Assembly: GCA_001606155.1 (NCBI GenBank)
Contig: LODT01000016.1
Coordinates: 449,870-513,869 of the forward strand
Source: Tieghemostelium lacteum
Lineage: Eukaryota
Length of the DNA: 64,000 nt
Reading direction: 5' to 3'
In this document: piece after piece, positions 5,087 to 15,784 of the stretch
Layout of the letters: each line of letters begins with the position of its first letter
Position numbering within the stretch: position 1 is the stretch's first letter
The notes under the pieces: generated by a model
What the model was told of the DNA's origin: nothing
Seen by the model: the letters and a program-made list of their open reading frames with translations, nothing else
Databases searched by the model: none
Translations under genes and position numbers: made by a program

Positions 5087-5856
5087 ATGAGCCAAAATGA
5101 AGAAATTACCTATAAATACTTTGAAAAACAACGGTTGAAACTGTGTGGAATGCATGCTTTAAATAATTTAGTAACCTATTATCCAATAACTATTAAATTT
5201 AATTACGAAGGGTTTTTGAAAGAGAGTTGAAAACTAACACTATTTATGTGTAATACCCTACCTTTACCACCAATTGGAATGGACATTTAATTAATACATA
5301 GCTTCAAGAAGAGAAATTTAAACAAAAAGATTTAGATGCAATAGCATATGAGATTGATGTTTCAAATAGGTTTTTTAATCCACACAAGAGTGTATTGTAG
5401 GCATTAGAATTTTATATAAAGTCTTTAAACACCATCTATTAATTAAAAACTAGTGGAATAGGTAATTATGATGCAAATGTATTGATAAAAGCATTAACAG
5501 ATATAGGATACCAAGTAACTTGGTTTGATAAGAGAAAACCTACTACTGAAATTGACTTTTCAATGAATCTTTATGGTTTAGTCATAAATACAATGGAGAA
5601 GAGATTCTTTAATATCTATCATGCTAGACATTGGATAGCAATAAAGAATTTAAATTTTGGTAAACCTCCGACTCAACCCAATGAACATATAACTATAGAT
5701 CAACTTACTATAACTGAAAATCAAAGTAATCAGCAATATAAATTTGTTGAATTTAATTCTGAACATCGTCACCCAAAACTCATTGATAACATTCATACTT
5801 ATATACAAGACACAATAAAAAATAAGAATGGTGAAGTACTATTAGTTTATAGGTAA
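5087..5856 (+). CDS. Josephin-domain deubiquitinase (JOSD1/2-like); exons 5087..5170, 5302..5369, 5454..5856
   Basis: Exon 1 MSQNEEITYKYFEKQRLKLCGMHALNNL carries the catalytic Cys motif LCGMHALNN. It continues as LQEEKFKQKDLDAIAYEIDVSN and then GNYDANVLIKALTDIGYQVTWFDKRK...HWIAIKNL, matching JOSD GNYDVNV...WWDRR...HW. Donors GTAACC at 5171 and GTTTTT at 5370; acceptors catAG and aactAG. Confidence 0.7.
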
Positions 5857-5958
5857 AACCTAAATCAAACCCACCCACACCATTGTATATTAAAATTAAA
5901 AAAAGAAAAATTGTATATTCTATTATATATTTATTTATAAACAGTAGATTAAATTGAA

Positions 5959-8125
5959 TTAATCAACTTGTTCCATTTGAGATGGTTCATTGTTGTCAGA
6001 AACTAAAGGTGGTAATTCTTCATCAGTGGTGTTATTGTTGTTTGAAGAGTCATCACCAGTTGGGATTGATAAACCGAGTTTAATCATTCTGTGGATTCTG
6101 GTGGCGAATGATGATGGATCGTCTAATGAGAAACCAGAGGATAAGAGAGCGGTTTCATAAAGTAAGTGAACAAAGTCTTTGAAGGTTTTGGCTTTTTCAT
6201 TAGCTTTCTTTCTGAGTTCTTGAACGATTGGATGATCTGGATTGATTTCCATGGTTTTTTTGGATGACATATAAGTGGACATGGAGTTATCACGGAGAGC
6301 TTGAGCTTTCATGATTCTTTCCATATTGGCGGACCACCCAAATTCAGAAGTGACCAAAGCACATGGTGAGTTAACTAAACGAGTTGAAAGAACAACTTTT
6401 TCAATTTTGTCTCCGAGGACTTCTTTGATTTCACTGACGAGAACTTCATTGGCTTTTTTGTCTTCTTCAGCTTTGACTTTTTCTTCTTCAGTTTCGTCAA
6501 GTTTCAAACCTTCTTTGGTGATGGAAACTAATTTCTTACCATCATATTCTTTCAATTGTTGAACTGCATATTCATCAATTGGGTCAGTCATGTAAATAAC
6601 TTCGAGATTCTTCTTCTTGAGACCTTCAATGAAAGGTGAGGTTTCAACAGTCTTTCTGTTTTCACCAGTAATGTAGTAAATGTCTTTTTGACCTTCTTTC
6701 ATACGAGCAACGTATTCTTTGAGAGTGGTGGTTTCTTCACCAGATTTAGAGGTATGATAACGGAGGAGATCAGCAATTTTCTCACGGTTTTGAGTGTCTT
6801 CATGGATACCTAATTTGAGATTCTTGGCAAATGATTCGTAGAATTTCTTGTAGTCTTCATTGTTTTCAGCAACTTCAGCGAATAATTCAAGACATTTCTT
6901 GACGAGATTCTTTCTGATGACTTTGAGGATAGAGTTTTGTTGGAGAGTTTCTCTGGAAATGTTCAATGGTAAATCTTCAGAATCAACAATACCTTTGATG
7001 AAATTCAACCATTCTGGGATTAAATCTTGACAGTTATCCATGATGAAAACTCTCTTGACGTACAATTTAATGTTGTTGTGCTTCTTTTTGGATTCGAATA
7101 AATCGAATGGAGCTCTCTTTGGAACAAAGAGGATGGCTCTGAATTCAAGTTGACCTTCAACAGAGAAGTGTTTAACAGCTAATGGCTCTTCCCAATCATT
7201 GCTGATTGATTTGTAGAATGAGTTATATTCTTCTTTGGTGATTTCAGAAGCGTTTCTGGTCCAGAGTGGTTTGGTCTTGTTCAAAACATCCCATTCTTTT
7301 TCTTGAACTTTCTTTTTCTCTTTCTTGACTTCTTCGTCTTCAATCTCTTCAATTTTAGCATCACCGGTTTCTTCAGAGGTTTCAGTTTTCTTTTCTTCTT
7401 CAACTTCTTTCTCTTTAATGGTGAGTAAATTGATTGGGTATTGAATGAATTCAGAGTGTTTTTTAACAAGATTCTTGATTTTAGTTTCATCCAAGAAATC
7501 TAATTGATCATCTTTCATGTGGAGAACTAATTTAGTACCTCTTCCCAATGGTTCAGAGTTATCAATGGCGACAGTGAATTCACCACCAGCTGATGAAGTC
7601 CAAACGTATTGTTCATCATCATTGTGTTTGGAATGGACGATAACAGTGTCAGCAACCAAATAGGCAGAATAGAAACCAACACCAAATTGACCAATCATAG
7701 AAATATCAGCACCTCCAGTGTTCAATTGTTCCATGAATTTCTTTGTACCTGAAGAGGCAATGGTACCCAAGTTCTTTACCAAATCAGATTTAGTCATACC
7801 AATACCTGAGTCAATAATGGTAAGGGTTTTGGCGGCTTTATCTGGAATGATTCTGATTTCCAATTCTGGTTTAGATTCCAAAACAGAGTTATCAGTCAAT
7901 GATTGATATCTGATTTTATCTAAAGCCTAAGATTTATCAAATAGAGATTTAATTAGTAAATCTAAGATATATAGATATCTAATCAATTAAAATACATACA
8001 TCAGAGGCATTTGAAATCAACTCTCTTAAAAATACTTCCTTGTTTGAATAGAAAGTATTGATGATTAAACTCATCAATTGGTTGATTTCAGCTTGGAATT
8101 TGAATGTTTCAACTTCTTGTGACAT
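5959..8125 (-). CDS. hspD: Hsp90 (cytosolic HSP90/HtpG family), copy A; exons 8125..8000 and 7926..5959 on the minus strand, 73-nt intron
   Basis: Exon 1 [48 protein letters not shown] donor and cttAG acceptor. Exon 2 [12 protein letters not shown]...[15 protein letters not shown]...C-terminal MEQVD. Full-length HSP90 of ~697 aa. Confidence 0.9.
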
Positions 8126-8955
8126 GACTATATTGTTATTATATTTATAAAATTAATAGAAATAAAAATAAGAATATGAAGCTTGAAAAAAGAGAATGGA
8201 TTTTTTTTTTTTTTATTTTAAGTTTTTCAAAATGAATTTTATCGACTTCACAAAAATTTCAAGCAAATTTCGCTGTGTTTGCCACGAAATTTAATATGAA
8301 AAAACTTAAATTTATAACATATATTAAGTTTTTTATTTTCTTTTTATTTTAGGTAGTGTTTAGTCAATAGATCTATAACACAGTAGTTATCAAATATATT
8401 TCTATGGATTTTCAATAACCTTTCTTTTAATTTTAATTCTAATAATTCGAATATCCCACACTATATTTTTTTAAAACACACATCCACAAATCTTAAGATA
8501 TCAAATTATTACTATTTACTCCAATAATAATTTGACATTTCCAATATCTTAAAATATGCATTCTTCAGATCCATCTTTTGTATTTCTTTATTTTTATTTT
8601 TAAATGTATTTCTAGTACATTTACCATTTTAAAAATAATTTAAAGAGATTACAAAAGTAACTTATGAATTAACTGCAAGGTATAATTTTAAAACATATCC
8701 GCAATCAATTTAAACAGAAATGATATTCTGAAAAATTGATATGTACCTTGAATGTAAAATTTAATCACTATTTTTATTTAATATTAGTATTTAAATGAAA
8801 AATGGGAATACTCTATTTGAATTTATTTGGTAATTAGATGGATCTTCATAAAAGTGGTCTTCAGAAACCTTTAAAAAAAATTTTTTTTGTTTTTTTTTTC
8901 ATTTTCGTATCTTCAATAATTTATCTAACACATATTTTATCAAAGAAATACAAAA
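8126..8955. promoter_or_regulatory. shared divergent (bidirectional) promoter region of the two Hsp90 genes; AT-rich, with several imperfect GAA/TTC heat-shock-element-like arrays
   Basis: Position between two outward-facing start codons. GAAnnTTC-like triplets occur at ~8245-8300 (TTCacaaaaaTTTCaagcaaaTTTCg, cacGAAatTTaa) and ~8845-8870 (gatcTTCat..gtcTTCaGAAacc). None is a perfect nGAAnnTTCnnGAAn. Confidence 0.35.
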
Positions 8956-11148
8956 ATGACCCAAGAAGTTGAAACATTCAAATTCCAAGCTGAAATCAAC
9001 CAATTGATGAGTTTAATCATCAATACTTTCTATTCAAACAAGGAAGTATTTTTAAGAGAGTTGATTTCAAATGCCTCTGATGTATGTATTATATAAAGTC
9101 TAAGAGAATTCAAAAGAGATCTTTAAAAAGAATAGGTTATTAATATTTGGTTTGTAACATTACTACTATTTATACTATAGGCTTTAGATAAAATCAGATA
9201 TCAATCATTGACTGATAACTCTGTTTTGGAATCTAAACCAGAATTGGAAATCAGAATCATTCCAGATAAAGCCGCCAAAACTCTTACCATTATTGATTCA
9301 GGTATTGGTATGACTAAATCTGATTTGGTAAAGAACTTGGGTACCATTGCCTCTTCAGGTACAAAGAAATTCATGGAACAATTGAACACTGGAGGTGCTG
9401 ATATCTCTATGATTGGTCAATTTGGTGTTGGTTTCTATTCTGCCTATTTGGTTGCTGATACTGTTATCGTCCATTCCAAACACAATGATGATGAACAATA
9501 CGTTTGGACTTCATCAGCTGGTGGTGAATTCACTGTCGCCATTGATAACTCTGAACCATTGGGAAGAGGTACTAAATTAGTTCTCCACATGAAAGATGAT
9601 CAATTAGATTTCTTGGATGAAACTAAAATCAAGAATCTTGTTAAAAAACACTCTGAATTCATTCAATACCCAATCAATTTACTCACCATTAAAGAAAAAG
9701 AAGTTGAAGAAGAAAAGAAAACTGAAACCTCTGAAGAAACCGGTGATGCTAAAATTGAAGAAATTGAAGACGAAGAAGTCAAGAAAGAGAAAAAGAAAGT
9801 TCAAGAAAAAGAATGGGATGTTTTGAACAAGACCAAACCACTCTGGACCAGAAACGCTGCTGAAATCACCAAAGAAGAATATAACTCATTCTACAAATCA
9901 ATCAGCAATGATTGGGAAGAACCATTAGCTGTTAAACACTTCTCTGTTGAAGGTCAACTTGAATTCAGAGCCATCCTCTTTGTTCCAAAGAGAGCTCCAT
10001 TCGATTTATTCGAATCCAAAAAGAAACACAACAACATTAAATTGTATGTCAAGAGAGTTTTCATCATGGATAACTGTCAAGATTTAATCCCAGAATGGTT
10101 GAATTTCATCAAAGGTATTGTTGATTCTGAAGATTTACCATTGAACATTTCCAGAGAAACCCTCCAACAAAACTCTATCCTCAAAGTCATCAGAAAGAAT
10201 CTCGTCAAGAAATGTCTTGAATTATTCGCTGAAGTTGCTGAAAACAATGAAGACTACAAGAAATTCTACGAATCATTTGCCAAGAATCTCAAATTAGGTA
10301 TCCATGAAGACACTCAAAACCGTGAGAAAATCGCTGATCTCCTCCGTTACCACACCTCCAAATCTGGTGAAGAAACCACCACTCTCAAAGAATACGTTGC
10401 TCGTATGAAAGAAGGCCAAAAAGACATTTACTACATTACTGGTGAAAACAGAAAGACTGTTGAAACCTCACCATTCATTGAAGGTCTCAAGAAGAAGAAT
10501 CTCGAAGTTATTTACATGACTGACCCAATTGATGAATATGCAGTTCAACAATTGAAAGAATATGATGGTAAGAAATTAGTTTCCATCACCAAAGAAGGTT
10601 TGAAACTCGACGAAACTGAAGAAGAAAAAGTCAAAGCTGAAGAAGACAAAAAAGCCAATGAAGTTCTCGTCAGTGAAATCAAAGAAGTCCTCGGAGACAA
10701 AATTGAAAAAGTTGTTCTTTCAACTCGTTTAGTTAACTCACCATGTGCTTTGGTCACTTCTGAATTTGGATGGTCCGCCAATATGGAAAGAATCATGAAA
10801 GCTCAAGCTCTCCGTGATAACTCCATGTCCACTTATATGTCATCCAAAAAAACCATGGAAATCAATCCAGATCATCCAATCGTCCAAGAACTCAGAAAGA
10901 AAGCTAATGAAAAAGCCAAAACCTTCAAAGACTTTGTTCACTTACTTTACGAAACCGCTCTCTTATCCTCTGGTTTCTCATTAGACGATCCATCATCATT
11001 CGCCACCAGAATCCACAGAATGATTAAACTCGGTTTATCAATCCCAACTGGTGATGACTCTTCAAACAACAATAACACCACTGATGAAGAATTACCACCT
11101 TTAGTTTCTGACAACAATGAACCATCTCAAATGGAACAAGTTGATTAA
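8956..11148 (+). CDS. hspD: Hsp90, copy B, inverted relative to copy A; exons 8956..9081 and 9181..11148, 99-nt intron
   Basis: The protein matches copy A except MTQ vs MSQ at codon 2 and RNAAE vs RNASE, plus 2 synonymous differences. GTATGT donor at 9082, tatAG acceptor at 9180. Confidence 0.9.
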
Positions 11149-11361
11149 ACCAATCCCTAGACTCCCCCTAATACACTTTTTTTTCTTAGTTAGTTTAAAA
11201 AATAAATATCAGTCTTTAAAAAATCTAGTGAAATTTCATTGTTTTCTTAATTTCAAGAGTTTTGGCATTCAACTTCCCCAACCACCAACACAACACCCTT
11301 TTAAAAACAAAATTTTTTTTATTTCAAATTTTTTTGAACACATAAATCAACACAACAACAA

Positions 11362-13797
11362 ATGGCAAACCCAAAAGGACTGTTAATTGGTGGTCTATTG
11401 TTATTTGCTGTTGGAACTACATTACTAGTAATTTCACTAGTTTTATTCCCATCAGTTTTGACAAAAGTTGGAAACAAAGCAGTTTTGAGTAATTTGATTG
11501 TTGATTCATCAGTATGTATATTAACACCATTGACAATCTTTTGATAATTTGCATAAGAATATATTATATTTACTCTTTATTATTAATTAGCAAAGTACAA
11601 GATATGATGATTGGCAAGGTGATGCATCAATTGAGAATTCATATATACAATATTATTACATGTGGAATCTAGTAAGATATTTTAGATAGTTTAATAGGAT
11701 ATTTTATATATCGTAAAAAAAAAAAACATGATATTAATATATAGTGGTTGTATAATTTAGACTAATCCACAACAGGTTATAAATGGTGGTATTCCAAATT
11801 ATGAACAAATTGGACCTATAAATTATAAATATGAATGGACATATGAAAATGTTAGTTTTATAGATTCAGGTAATCAGGTGTCTTATCAACAGAATAAAAT
11901 CTATATATACACTAGCGATGGATCAGTAGTTGATCCTACAACTACAATGATTACCAATATCAATCCAGCATTCTATGGACTAATGAGTCAATTATCTGTG
12001 GCTGCTGAAGAGATTAATGCACAATTTCATGGTTTTGTAACATTTACTGTAGAGGAATTACTATTTATTATAGGTAGTGGAGGTCAAATGAAATACTTTT
12101 TAGATTATTTGAGTTCACCACAATCTAATTTCACAGAGTTAGCCTATGCTGTAAATTCACCTAAACAATTTACCATTGAATTGAATAGACTATTGAATGA
12201 GTTGGGTCCAAATTCAATTTATACCTTTTTAGATGGATGGGCAAATTCAACTGCTACTGGACCTACTGGTGCTGGTAATTGGACTGGTATGTATTTGGGT
12301 GAAGATACTCAAATCTCTAGAGAATCAGCATCACAGATACTCAATATCTCCAATCCCATGTCTATTCTACACTCTCAAGCTGTAAACTATTGGTTGAGTG
12401 CATGCTTTGGAAATCAAACTCAATCTAGTATTTTACAATCAAATTTGGGTATAACCAATAGTCAACTATTACAAGTATGTCAATGGTGGTTATATGACTT
12501 TTCACCAAAATTCACAGATTCAGTATTAATGGAGATGTGTAATGTCACCTCTATGACTGAGGTTGCATACTGTCAATACCTTACCGCTCAGCCATTAGGT
12601 TATAAATCCATTTCAAGTTTCCACTACACTCAAGAACCTTTTGCATTGGGAGCTATTGAATTTACAATGGTTGCACAACAAAACTTTACATTACCCGCTA
12701 TGAAACTCTATGAGATTTTGTTTACTGGAAATCTAACTCTTTTGAATGCAAATAACATTGGTCTGTTTTTGAACCCATCTAATGCATCTCTATGGCCATT
12801 AAATAACAATGACTATGCAATAGTTCAAGAATACATTTTGACAATGGGTCAAACTTATACTCGTCAGACTATAATGGACCAGTTCTATCCAACTAGTGGT
12901 TTCATAGCCACTCGTTCAATGTATGATTGGTTGTGGAATTGCTCTGATCCTTTACTTGATTTCTTAGGTCAAGGTATCGACTGTTCTCTACAACAAAACA
13001 ATACTTTGGAGCAATTATCTACCATCTATACCGGTAAAAGTAACTCATCAATGATCAATCAGTATATTATATATCAAGGCTATTCTGTAGTTCCCTATTG
13101 GAATGGTACAGTTCCAGTCGAAGGTGTTACTGAAAGTGGTCAATTTGCACCAGGACAATCACCAGATACTCTAACATTATTTGAAGAGAATACATTAAGA
13201 TCAATTGACTTGGTCTATGTTGAAGATTCTACAGTACAAGGTGTTGATACCAAGAGATATTTCCTAAAGAATAACTCCTTTTCTGCCAGTCCAGTGTTTT
13301 ACTCTCCAGTTGATGGTCTAACCAACATGTCATCTACCTTAAATCCACCATTACCCATATTCATTAGTCTTTGGGATATGTATGAGGTACCAACTGACAT
13401 TGTCAACAAAGTTCAAGGTCAAAATCCATCGTTTAATCTCTCTGGAGTTCCTTTGGATCTTGAACCTATTACAGGTAATGCATTGTACTATAATCTAAAA
13501 CTTCAAATTAACTTTTATATTGCCAATGACTCTTTAATGTTTGAGCCACAAACCACCTATCAGAATCTGACTAGTGATTGTTATTATCCACTCTTTAAAG
13601 TCGGTCAAACTGGTACGCCATCTTCTTCTACCATCAGTACTTTGAAATCCCAATTCAAAGATTTACATATTCTCAAATTGGCACCAGTCATTATGGCTGC
13701 AATTGTTGGTGGTATTCTAATAGTCATTGGTGCCATTATGGCATTCTTTGGATATAGAAGATTAAGAAAAGTTGCAGGTTATGAAATTATTCAATAA
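11362..13797 (+). CDS. CD36/LIMP-2 family scavenger receptor-like glycoprotein (Lmp-like); exons 11362..11511 and 11776..13797
   Basis: N-terminal TM segment MANPKGLLIGGLLLFAVGTTLLVISLVLF. GTATGT donor at 11512, aacAG acceptor at 11775. The CD36 signature IGPINYKYEWTYENVSF, many NxS/T sites and a C-terminal TM plus short tail (LAPVIMAAIVGGILIVIGAIMAFFGYRRLRK). Confidence 0.75.
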
Positions 13798-14034: not shown

Positions 14035-15784
14035 TTATCTTAATAAACGATCAATGGCATCATTTACATTTCCATTCGATTGTGTAAGTGCAATGATATT
14101 TGCTTGTCTGTCCAAGAAACCTAATTCCTCCAATTGATTCAATTGAATTTGGTATCTGACTTCAGGTGGTTCTTGATTTTGAGTTGTTTGAGATTGACCA
14201 CCCATTCCACCACCCATACCACCCATACCTCCAAAAAGATTGTTAAAATTACCCATTCCGCCTAATAAACTATTTAAATCACCTAAACCTGCAAGAGGAT
14301 TTGCACCTTGGTTTGCACCTTGACTTGCACCTTGATTTCCACCTTGATTTCCAAACATTCCATTATTTTGCAATGTATTCAATGATTGTTGCATTTGCAT
14401 CATTGCTTGTAAATTTTGTGGGTTACTTAACATATTCAAAAACTGTGGACTCTGAATAGCGTCTCTAATTTGTGGATTAGCTTGAATCATTTGTCTAATT
14501 CTTGGATCAGATTCCATCATCTATATATATTTCAATTTTAAAAATTAATAACTATCACTTGAGGTTATTGAGTATTTTATAAATTTAATACAAACCTGTT
14601 GTAAAATTTGTGGATTGGCTGTCAATTGCTGTAGTGATTGTTGAAACATTGGATTACTTAAAAGTCCTTGCAAGGCTTCTGGTGACATATTGGTTGGATC
14701 AAATCCACCCATTCCACCCATTCCACCCATTCCTCCTAAACCACCAAATCCACCTAAACCTGATAGACCTGCAAATGGATTGGCTGTATTTGGTGATGTT
14801 GTAGAAGTTGGATTAGTAGTACCACTATTTGGTGATGTTGTAGATCCACTTGGTTGTTGTTGTTGTTGCTGTTGAGGTGACCATGGATTTGGAAGAGGTT
14901 GATTATTTGGATTTGGGTTATTAAAAAGATTTGTAAAAGGGTTACTATTGGTTTGATTCTGAGTTTGATTTGCTGCTGCGTTTAAAAGTGGTTCTTGAAC
15001 ATTTGTGTACATTCTTCTGAGTAGATTGAAACCTTCTGGATGATTTTCAATATTAATCATTGCTCTATCAGCATTACGCATCATTTCTCTCATTAATTCT
15101 GGGTTTCTCATCATTTCAAAAGATTGTCTAAGTGTCTATTATAAATAAGATTTTGATAAAATTAAGGGTGTTAACAACAAAACTACTACTTTTTAAATTC
15201 TAATTTACATACTTGGGGATCATTTAAAATCTGTCTCATTTCTGGATTATTATTAACAATTTCTCTCATTTCTGGGTTACTCATCATCATTTCTCTAAGG
15301 ATATCTGGATTAGAAAAGAGATTTTCAAACATTGGTGAATTTAAAAGGTTTTGCATTGCTGGATTATTCATCATATTTTGCATATCAGTTGGCATACCAG
15401 GGAACACTGGTGCTTGTGATGTATTTTGAGTTTGTGGATTTGGCACTTGTTCTGTTGGTGGAGGTGGTGGTGCTGATCCTCTAACTAAATGTAATGTGTG
15501 ACCTTCTTGAATCTCTATAAAAATATTTTCATAAATTTAATAATATTAGATATTCAAGTTACTCCTATCCTGTCTCATTCTTAATTTTATCTTTGATAAT
15601 TACTTAATTCCTCTAATGTTTGATGATCTTTTAATATTCTACCTGAATAGATAATTCTTTGTTGGTCGGCTGGAATAGATCCTTTCTCTGCTAAAATTGT
15701 TTTTAAAGCTGCAACTGTTATACTTAGATCAACATCTACAGACAACTTATTATCAGTTGATGATTTTATATTAAGATGTACCAT
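14035..15784 (-). CDS. ubqln: ubiquilin (UBL-STI1-UBA, Dsk2 family); 4 exons: 15784..15604, 15514..15213, 15135..14596, 14520..14035
   Basis: N-terminal ubiquitin-like domain ending [22 protein letters not shown]1 repeats [18 protein letters not shown] / [19 protein letters not shown]...[11 protein letters not shown]-terminal [35 protein letters not shown]. Donors GTAATT, GTATGT, GTTTGT; all junctions keep the frame. Confidence 0.8.

Follow-up and report, generated by a model that had tools for sequence, protein, structure and literature searches.

The 64,000-nt stretch of the Tieghemostelium lacteum genome analyzed here (assembly GCA_001606155.1, contig LODT01000016.1, positions 449,870 to 513,869 of the forward strand; hereafter the window, numbered from its first letter) carries two complete two-exon Hsp90 genes, arranged head-to-head and transcribed divergently, with 830 nt from ATG to ATG. 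We call the left-hand gene copy A and the right-hand gene copy B. Splicing gave each an open coding sequence (CDS) of 2094 nt and a protein of 697 amino acids (aa), and our gene models agree residue for residue with the deposited T. lacteum proteins KYR00249.1 (A) and KYR00250.1 (B), which are consecutive accessions on one 563-kb contig. An earlier note on this DNA had described an inverted pair of complete two-exon genes with 2094-nt coding sequences, introns of 73 and 99 nt and a spacer of about 830 bp, all of which was borne out by splicing. Its suggestion that the structure might be unrecognized is refuted by the two adjacent database entries; our literature searches found no paper describing the T. 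lacteum Hsp90 pair. The comparison that it drew with hspD of D. discoideum is beside the point, as the locus belongs to Tieghemostelium (formerly Dictyostelium) lacteum. The pair is made up as follows.

8125-8000, minus strand: copy A exon 1 (CDS nt 1-126)
7999-7927, minus strand: copy A intron, 73 nt, GT..AG, phase 0 after codon 42 (..NASD/ALDK.., the slash marking the intron)
7926-5959, minus strand: copy A exon 2 including the stop codon, 1968 nt (CDS nt 127-2094)
8126-8955, no strand: intergenic spacer between the start codons, 830 nt, AT-rich, about 20% GC
8956-9081, plus strand: copy B exon 1 (copy B is KYR00250.1)
9082-9180, plus strand: copy B intron, 99 nt, GT..AG, at the same site and in the same phase as in copy A
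9181-11148, plus strand: copy B exon 2 including the stop codon (the translation is KYR00250.1)

Judged by their sequences, both products are bona fide cytosolic Hsp90 proteins of the HSP90A (Hsp82-83) type. The HSP90 family profile PF00183 scores 757 bits in each copy, covering profile positions 1-506 of 518, and a GHKL-type ATPase domain is detected above gathering score at residues 30-181 of both (PF02518 and PF13589). The two proteins are colinear from end to end with the solved Hsp83, HSP90-beta and HSP90-alpha (E = 1e-291 to 1e-301), whereas the match to endoplasmin is far poorer for each (1e-199). Their N-termini align from residue 2-3 of solved cytosolic Hsp90s, with no endoplasmic reticulum or mitochondrial targeting extension. 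Both terminate in ..SQMEQVD, a C-terminal pentapeptide of the MEEVD type, the class that docks TPR co-chaperones; the corresponding residues are MEQVD in the A. subglobosum orthologue and MEEVD in that of D. purpureum.

The genes form the arms of an inverted repeat, 5953-7929 with 9178-11154 (1977 nt, 99%) and 7988-8143 with 8938-9093, which is the only repeat of at least 80 nt in the whole window. Identity between the two coding sequences is 98.9%, far more than chance would give, with 23 nt differences (1.1%), where the earlier note had counted about 5. It had also listed two silent a/g changes; synonymous third-position changes in fact number 20, lie between CDS nt 228 and 1896 and comprise 6 G/A, 13 C/T and 1 T/A. 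The remaining three differing bases fall in two codons, TCA/ACC at codon 2 (S2T) and TCT/GCT at codon 269 (S269A), the latter within RNASE in copy A and RNAAE in copy B; for these two amino acid differences that note was exactly right. Because third codon positions account for 21 of the 23 differences (P = 1e-8) and transitions for 19 of the 20 synonymous changes, we regard them as real divergence filtered by selection and not as sequencing errors. By the Nei-Gojobori method the copies are separated by a synonymous divergence (dS) of 0.051 (21 of 423 sites) and a nonsynonymous divergence (dN) of 0.001, a dN/dS of about 0.02; both genes are intact and under constraint, and probably functional. 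Third-position identity between them is 97%, and codons 3-42 of exon 1 are identical at 120 of 120 nt. The synonymous differences are evenly spaced along the CDS: identical runs reach 237 nt at most (P = 0.96), and the coefficient of variation of the gaps is not raised. Codon preferences are strong in the Hsp90 gene (GAA 73 vs GAG 6, CCA 18 vs CCT 2) and do not differ significantly between the copies, the commoner codon being found in copy B at 13 of the 20 sites.

Residue 269 lies just after the charged linker (..WTRNxS[DE]..), with the alanine of copy B at window position 9859. It is Ser, Thr or Asn in all other dictyostelid Hsp90s that we examined, and copy A retains the ancestral Ser; the substitution could remove a putative phosphorylation site from copy B.

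Outside the exons, the likeness between the two genes ends. In a global alignment the exons are 96-100% identical and everything beyond them is at the background of 30-56%. Scored against shuffled sequence, the introns show no likeness beyond splice-site consensus (z = -1.0), and neither the 415-nt promoter-proximal halves of the spacer (z = 1.9) nor the 400-nt 3' flanks (z = 0.4) resemble each other. The repeat arms run 18 nt upstream of the ATG and 6 nt beyond the stop codon, extensions that are at chance level. The homology boundaries (ATG, both intron borders and stop) all coincide with coding boundaries. Alignment and shuffling thus uphold the earlier claim that the introns share a start and then diverge, and that homology ends at the stop codons, the ATGs and the intron borders. 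Both introns begin with GTATGTATT; we rejected this shared start as evidence of homology, as GTATGT is the more frequent 5' splice-like hexamer of the window and the 9-mer occurs 6 times. Comparison of the left flank with the right by tblastx and blastn revealed no relic of a larger duplicated unit.

We gauged the extent of this non-coding divergence by simulation, in which the copy B intron and flanks were diverged under a substitution-plus-indel model and the resulting alignments were z-scored. Divergence of 0.05-0.5 substitutions per site left z values of 8-72, and it took about 1 substitution per site or more to bring z down to the values observed for the introns and flanks. By this measure, non-coding divergence would be at least roughly 20 times the dS of the exons.

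For comparison we took the orthologous Hsp90 loci of D. purpureum, P. violaceum, H. album, C. fasciculata and A. subglobosum, with 10 kb on each side where the contig allowed (L001 to L005 in that order; Hsp90 genes at L001 2991-5090, L002 8226-10392, L003 10001-12189, L004 10001-12343 and L005 10001-12097). The locus holds a single gene in all five, and a protein search returned one cytosolic Hsp90 per species. This agrees with the lineage-specific duplication proposed in the earlier note, and the duplication appears to be specific to the T. lacteum lineage or to have been lost elsewhere. Copies A and B stand at a dS of 0.8 to saturation and a dN of 0.13-0.16 from the five orthologues, the nearest of which has 84% protein identity. 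Third-position identity between dictyostelid species is only 39-65%, and of the 40 third positions in exon 1 codons 3-42, between 8 and 23 differ among the orthologues. A metagenome scan for close relatives produced only transcript-sized contigs with at most 73% identity.

Intron content varies across the dictyostelids. An intron at the ASD/ALDK site is present in P. violaceum (73 nt), in C. fasciculata (85 nt) and in both T. lacteum copies, and the gene is intronless in D. purpureum and A. subglobosum. The H. album gene has a single 89-nt intron at a different, earlier site, after codon 7, and that of C. fasciculata has introns at both sites (170 and 85 nt). It follows from this variation that the ASD/ALDK intron is ancestral and was repeatedly lost. 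The introns at this site in the T. lacteum copies, P. violaceum and C. fasciculata have no sequence resemblance to each other. Since both T. lacteum copies carry an intron at the shared ancestral site, the duplication must have been DNA-based and must have included the intron. No flank synteny was found, as a tblastx comparison of the five orthologous loci with the window matched Hsp90 only; the flanks therefore give no clue to which of the copies is the ancestral one. Hsp90 has a GRAM/VASt gene close by in D. purpureum, H. album and A. subglobosum, and a FYVE/Arm gene in D. purpureum and P. violaceum. Neither was detected anywhere in the 64-kb window, which places the T. lacteum Hsp90 locus in a rearranged neighborhood.

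We consider it likely that the pair arose by a lineage-specific inverted duplication at the DNA level and that its coding exons have been homogenized by interlocus gene conversion, with purifying selection also acting. An inverted, head-to-head duplication in the lineage leading to T. lacteum would have been followed by divergence to saturation of the promoter, 5' untranslated region (UTR), intron and 3'UTR of each gene, while non-reciprocal recombination between the inverted copies kept or re-made the exons near-identical. Because an unrelated intron lies between two homogenized exons, exon 1 (126 nt) and exon 2 (1968 nt) would have been converted separately, in tracts that ended with the homology. 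The roughly 5% synonymous divergence and the two amino acid changes would have accumulated after the last homogenization, an event that would not be very recent but about dS 0.05 in the past. We infer gene conversion from the discordance between exonic and non-exonic sequence; it is not directly seen. Dosage or differential regulation presumably provides the selective reason for keeping both copies.

Several observations weigh against this interpretation. There is no mosaic of identical and diverged blocks along the CDS, and hence no direct tract signature, nor is there evidence that conversion is still going on. The even spacing of the differences is compatible with complete homogenization followed by divergence, and so does not exclude conversion; the data fit past homogenization plus about 5% synonymous divergence as well as they fit a low steady-state rate of conversion. 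The earlier note had called the pair an old duplication kept identical by ongoing conversion. The discordance between exons and non-exonic sequence favors its conversion over a simple recent duplication, and the 23 evenly spaced differences speak against its "ongoing". Homogenizing a 126-nt exon embedded in non-homologous sequence would need short tracts. Separate tracts of this kind are made plausible by the conversion tracts of Caenorhabditis, which span 12-2958 bp and often include introns (PMC3966223). Our simulation model was also simple, and slippage may make the AT-rich non-coding DNA of dictyostelids turn over faster than the model allows. Finally, with two sequences and no close relative there is no tree-based proof that the duplication predates the divergence of the exons.

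One rival explanation dispenses with conversion altogether. In it, a recent inverted duplication at about dS 0.05 was followed by such rapid indel and slippage turnover that the AT-rich non-coding DNA became unalignable. Differences spread as evenly as these are what undisturbed divergence after one event should leave, every other species sampled has a single copy, and the spacer and flanks are of low complexity at 20-27% GC. We nevertheless find this account improbable. The introns and both 400-nt flanks retain no residual similarity (z of 1.9 or less), although simulated divergence ten times the exon dS still leaves z at 8-25, and all four homology boundaries fall on coding boundaries. A converse possibility is that the duplication is old and that purifying selection, together with strong selection on codon usage in a gene of high expression, has held the copies similar without recombination. 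The low dN/dS and strong codon preferences are in keeping with it, but the orthologue comparison effectively refutes it: with a dS to the orthologues of 0.8 to saturation, and third-position identities of 39-65% between species vs 97% between the copies, codon-usage selection alone cannot hold synonymous sites constant. Exon 1 makes the same point, since its perfect identity over codons 3-42, where orthologues do vary at third positions, is more than selection alone could supply.

Inverted, near-identical 2-kb arms are also a known source of assembly trouble, and the earlier note had raised the prospect of assembly collapse or a palindromic mis-assembly. Under this explanation, the assembly turned one Hsp90 gene into a false palindrome or joined two strains or haplotypes. 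This is very unlikely, given that each copy has its own valid GT..AG intron and a unique flank leading into a different neighboring gene, that the 830-nt spacer is unique and asymmetric, and that the differences are shaped by selection. Dictyostelid amoebae are, moreover, haploid.

The synonymous differences have a further property that might bear on the history of the pair. At 19 of the synonymous sites one copy has G or C and the other A or T. The G/C variant is in copy A at 8 of the 9 sites up to nt 993 and in copy B at 9 of the 10 sites from nt 1107 onward (change-point permutation P = 0.0036; runs test P = 0.03; both tests were chosen post hoc). The interval over which the holder of the G/C variant changes is located as follows.

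6947-7059, minus strand: change-point interval of copy A (CDS nt 994-1106), where the G/C variant passes from A to B; a speculative crossover scar
10048-10160, plus strand: change-point interval of copy B (CDS nt 994-1106), the counterpart of the copy A interval

Outgroups fail to polarize these changes, as the AT-rich ones match the A/T variant and the GC-richer ones the G/C variant, whichever copy carries it. Both derived amino acid changes sit in the A/T-rich half-gene lineage, the 5' half of copy B. We offer, as a speculation that is more probably wrong than right by a wide measure, that the locus behaves as a "flip-flop" module, in which the 2-kb inverted arms crossed over reciprocally near CDS nt 994-1106, inverting the center of the locus. 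Such a crossover would invert both promoters together with exon 1, the intron and the 5' half of exon 2 of each gene, and it would yield the switch pattern provided that one ancestral copy had drifted toward A/T. By joining halves of two copies evolving at different rates, it would explain both the G/C switch and the placement of the two amino acid changes in the 5' half of copy B. If this were true, T. lacteum populations may carry both orientations, and of the two genes one would be constrained and presumably strongly expressed, the other relaxed and presumably under different regulation, with conversion and inversion both connecting them.

The spacer separating the genes had been proposed in the earlier note to be a bidirectional stress promoter, a suggestion for which we found no sequence support. 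We looked in it for heat shock elements (HSEs): allowing at most 1 mismatch, 8126-8955 contains none of the three-unit kind, and the count of such elements across the window equals chance. The orthologous promoters offer little more, as three of the five lack a three-unit HSE at this threshold and the other two have 1-mismatch matches only. Degenerate HSE-like words with 2 mismatches are enriched in the spacer (13 vs 4.9 ± 2.5 per 830-nt tile, with a maximum of 11; shuffle P = 0.002) and cluster near each gene, at 8178-8258 and 8840-8907, which in T-rich DNA is weak evidence for heat shock control. The spacer has no internal symmetry, and its halves share no motif beyond A/T runs. Promoter footprinting detected no significant similarity of the T. 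lacteum promoters to the upstream regions of the five orthologues, or to one another. The spacer contains no tRNA, no Rfam match and no open reading frame (ORF) over 44 aa, and a scan for bacterial-type promoters and terminators, irrelevant here, was at chance.

It is thus doubtful that the 830-nt spacer is a common bidirectional heat shock promoter co-inducing both copies through joint HSEs, as in the hsp70 pairs of Drosophila. The divergent gene orientation and the enriched degenerate words near each gene would suit such an arrangement, but canonical HSEs are missing here and from most of the orthologous promoters, the two halves have neither common sequence nor symmetry, and a spacer of 830 nt has room enough for two separate promoters in so compact a genome. 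The hsp70 genes of Drosophila are, by comparison, strictly heat-inducible and have well-defined HSEs. The spacer presumably comprises two independent, divergent promoters with their 5'UTRs. That these promoters are completely different suggests independent regulation of the copies, in the manner of the constitutive and inducible cytosolic Hsp90 pairs HSC82/HSP82 of S. cerevisiae and HSP90-beta/alpha of vertebrates. Like those pairs, T. lacteum has two cytosolic Hsp90 genes with different promoters and very similar proteins, and they provide a plausible model for its keeping two copies. The yeast and vertebrate genes are unlinked or differently arranged, are more diverged and are not kept by exon-limited conversion.

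Exon-only homogenization is already known from other heat shock gene pairs, to which the T. lacteum pair adds an example in a new phylum-level lineage. The closest precedent is the Hsp82 pair of the mosquito Anopheles albimanus, for which the title of Benedict et al. (1996) gives concerted evolution limited to the ORFs, and which has been interpreted as interlocus gene conversion. The two systems share the cytosolic Hsp90/Hsp82 family and a pair of genes encoding the same or nearly the same protein; they differ in that T. lacteum is an amoebozoan and not an insect, that the duplications are independent and that the T. lacteum ORF is split by an intron that escaped homogenization. The inverted hsp70 pair at 87A7 of Drosophila is cited as a case of concerted evolution by gene conversion (Bettencourt and Feder, 2002, J Mol Evol 54:569; cited in PMC5865164 and PMC2793513) and is likewise a divergent heat shock gene pair, although its genes are intronless and encode Hsp70, whereas those of T. 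lacteum encode Hsp90 and have no canonical HSE that we could find. In C. elegans, the inverted hsp16-1/hsp16-48 modules and the adjacent inverted hsp70-7/hsp70-8 genes combine identical modules with completely diverged flanks, which was taken to indicate conversion over recent duplication (PMC3966223). They resemble the T. lacteum pair in their head-to-head arrangement; the C. elegans genes encode small heat shock proteins or Hsp70, and in T. lacteum the intron is excluded from conversion. Mammalian HSPA1A and HSPA1B descend from an old duplication, are closer to each other within a species than to their orthologues, and have been explained by conversion plus purifying selection (PMC5865164). 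Here too the differences are mostly synonymous and the UTRs have diverged, but these are intronless Hsp70 genes, and the age of their duplication is proven by synteny across placentals.

The pair would accordingly give an amoebozoan example, natural and compact, of exon-restricted concerted evolution. Its instructive feature is the 73/99-nt intron, which would have escaped homogenization and stood as a barrier between two separately homogenized exons. If conversion did act on the 126-nt exon, ectopic conversion in Dictyostelia can need no more homology than this exon offers, which gives a natural upper bound. No new class of biology is opened by these genes. They do set T. lacteum apart from the five dictyostelids sampled, in that it has two cytosolic Hsp90 genes with unrelated promoters, which is relevant to copy number, to knock-outs (both copies need targeting) and to the use of Hsp90 as a phylogenetic marker in this species.

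The two copies adjoin unrelated neighbors, Josephin-like on the left and of the CD36 family on the right, and gene packing around the pair is very compact. The Josephin-like ORF (5482-5856, plus strand; Pfam E = 6.5e-4, below gathering score) is convergent with copy A and ends 102 nt from its stop codon. The CD36-family gene (11362-13797, plus strand; E = 1.8e-35) begins 213 nt after the stop codon of copy B, with a GTATGTAT donor near 11513 closing its first exon. Farther to the right, at 14035-15114 on the minus strand, two adjacent ORFs without a Pfam match at E of 1e-3 or better have the look of exons belonging to a single ubiquilin-like gene; they are rich in Gln/Asn and in GMGG repeats, and their C-terminal tail is UBA-like.

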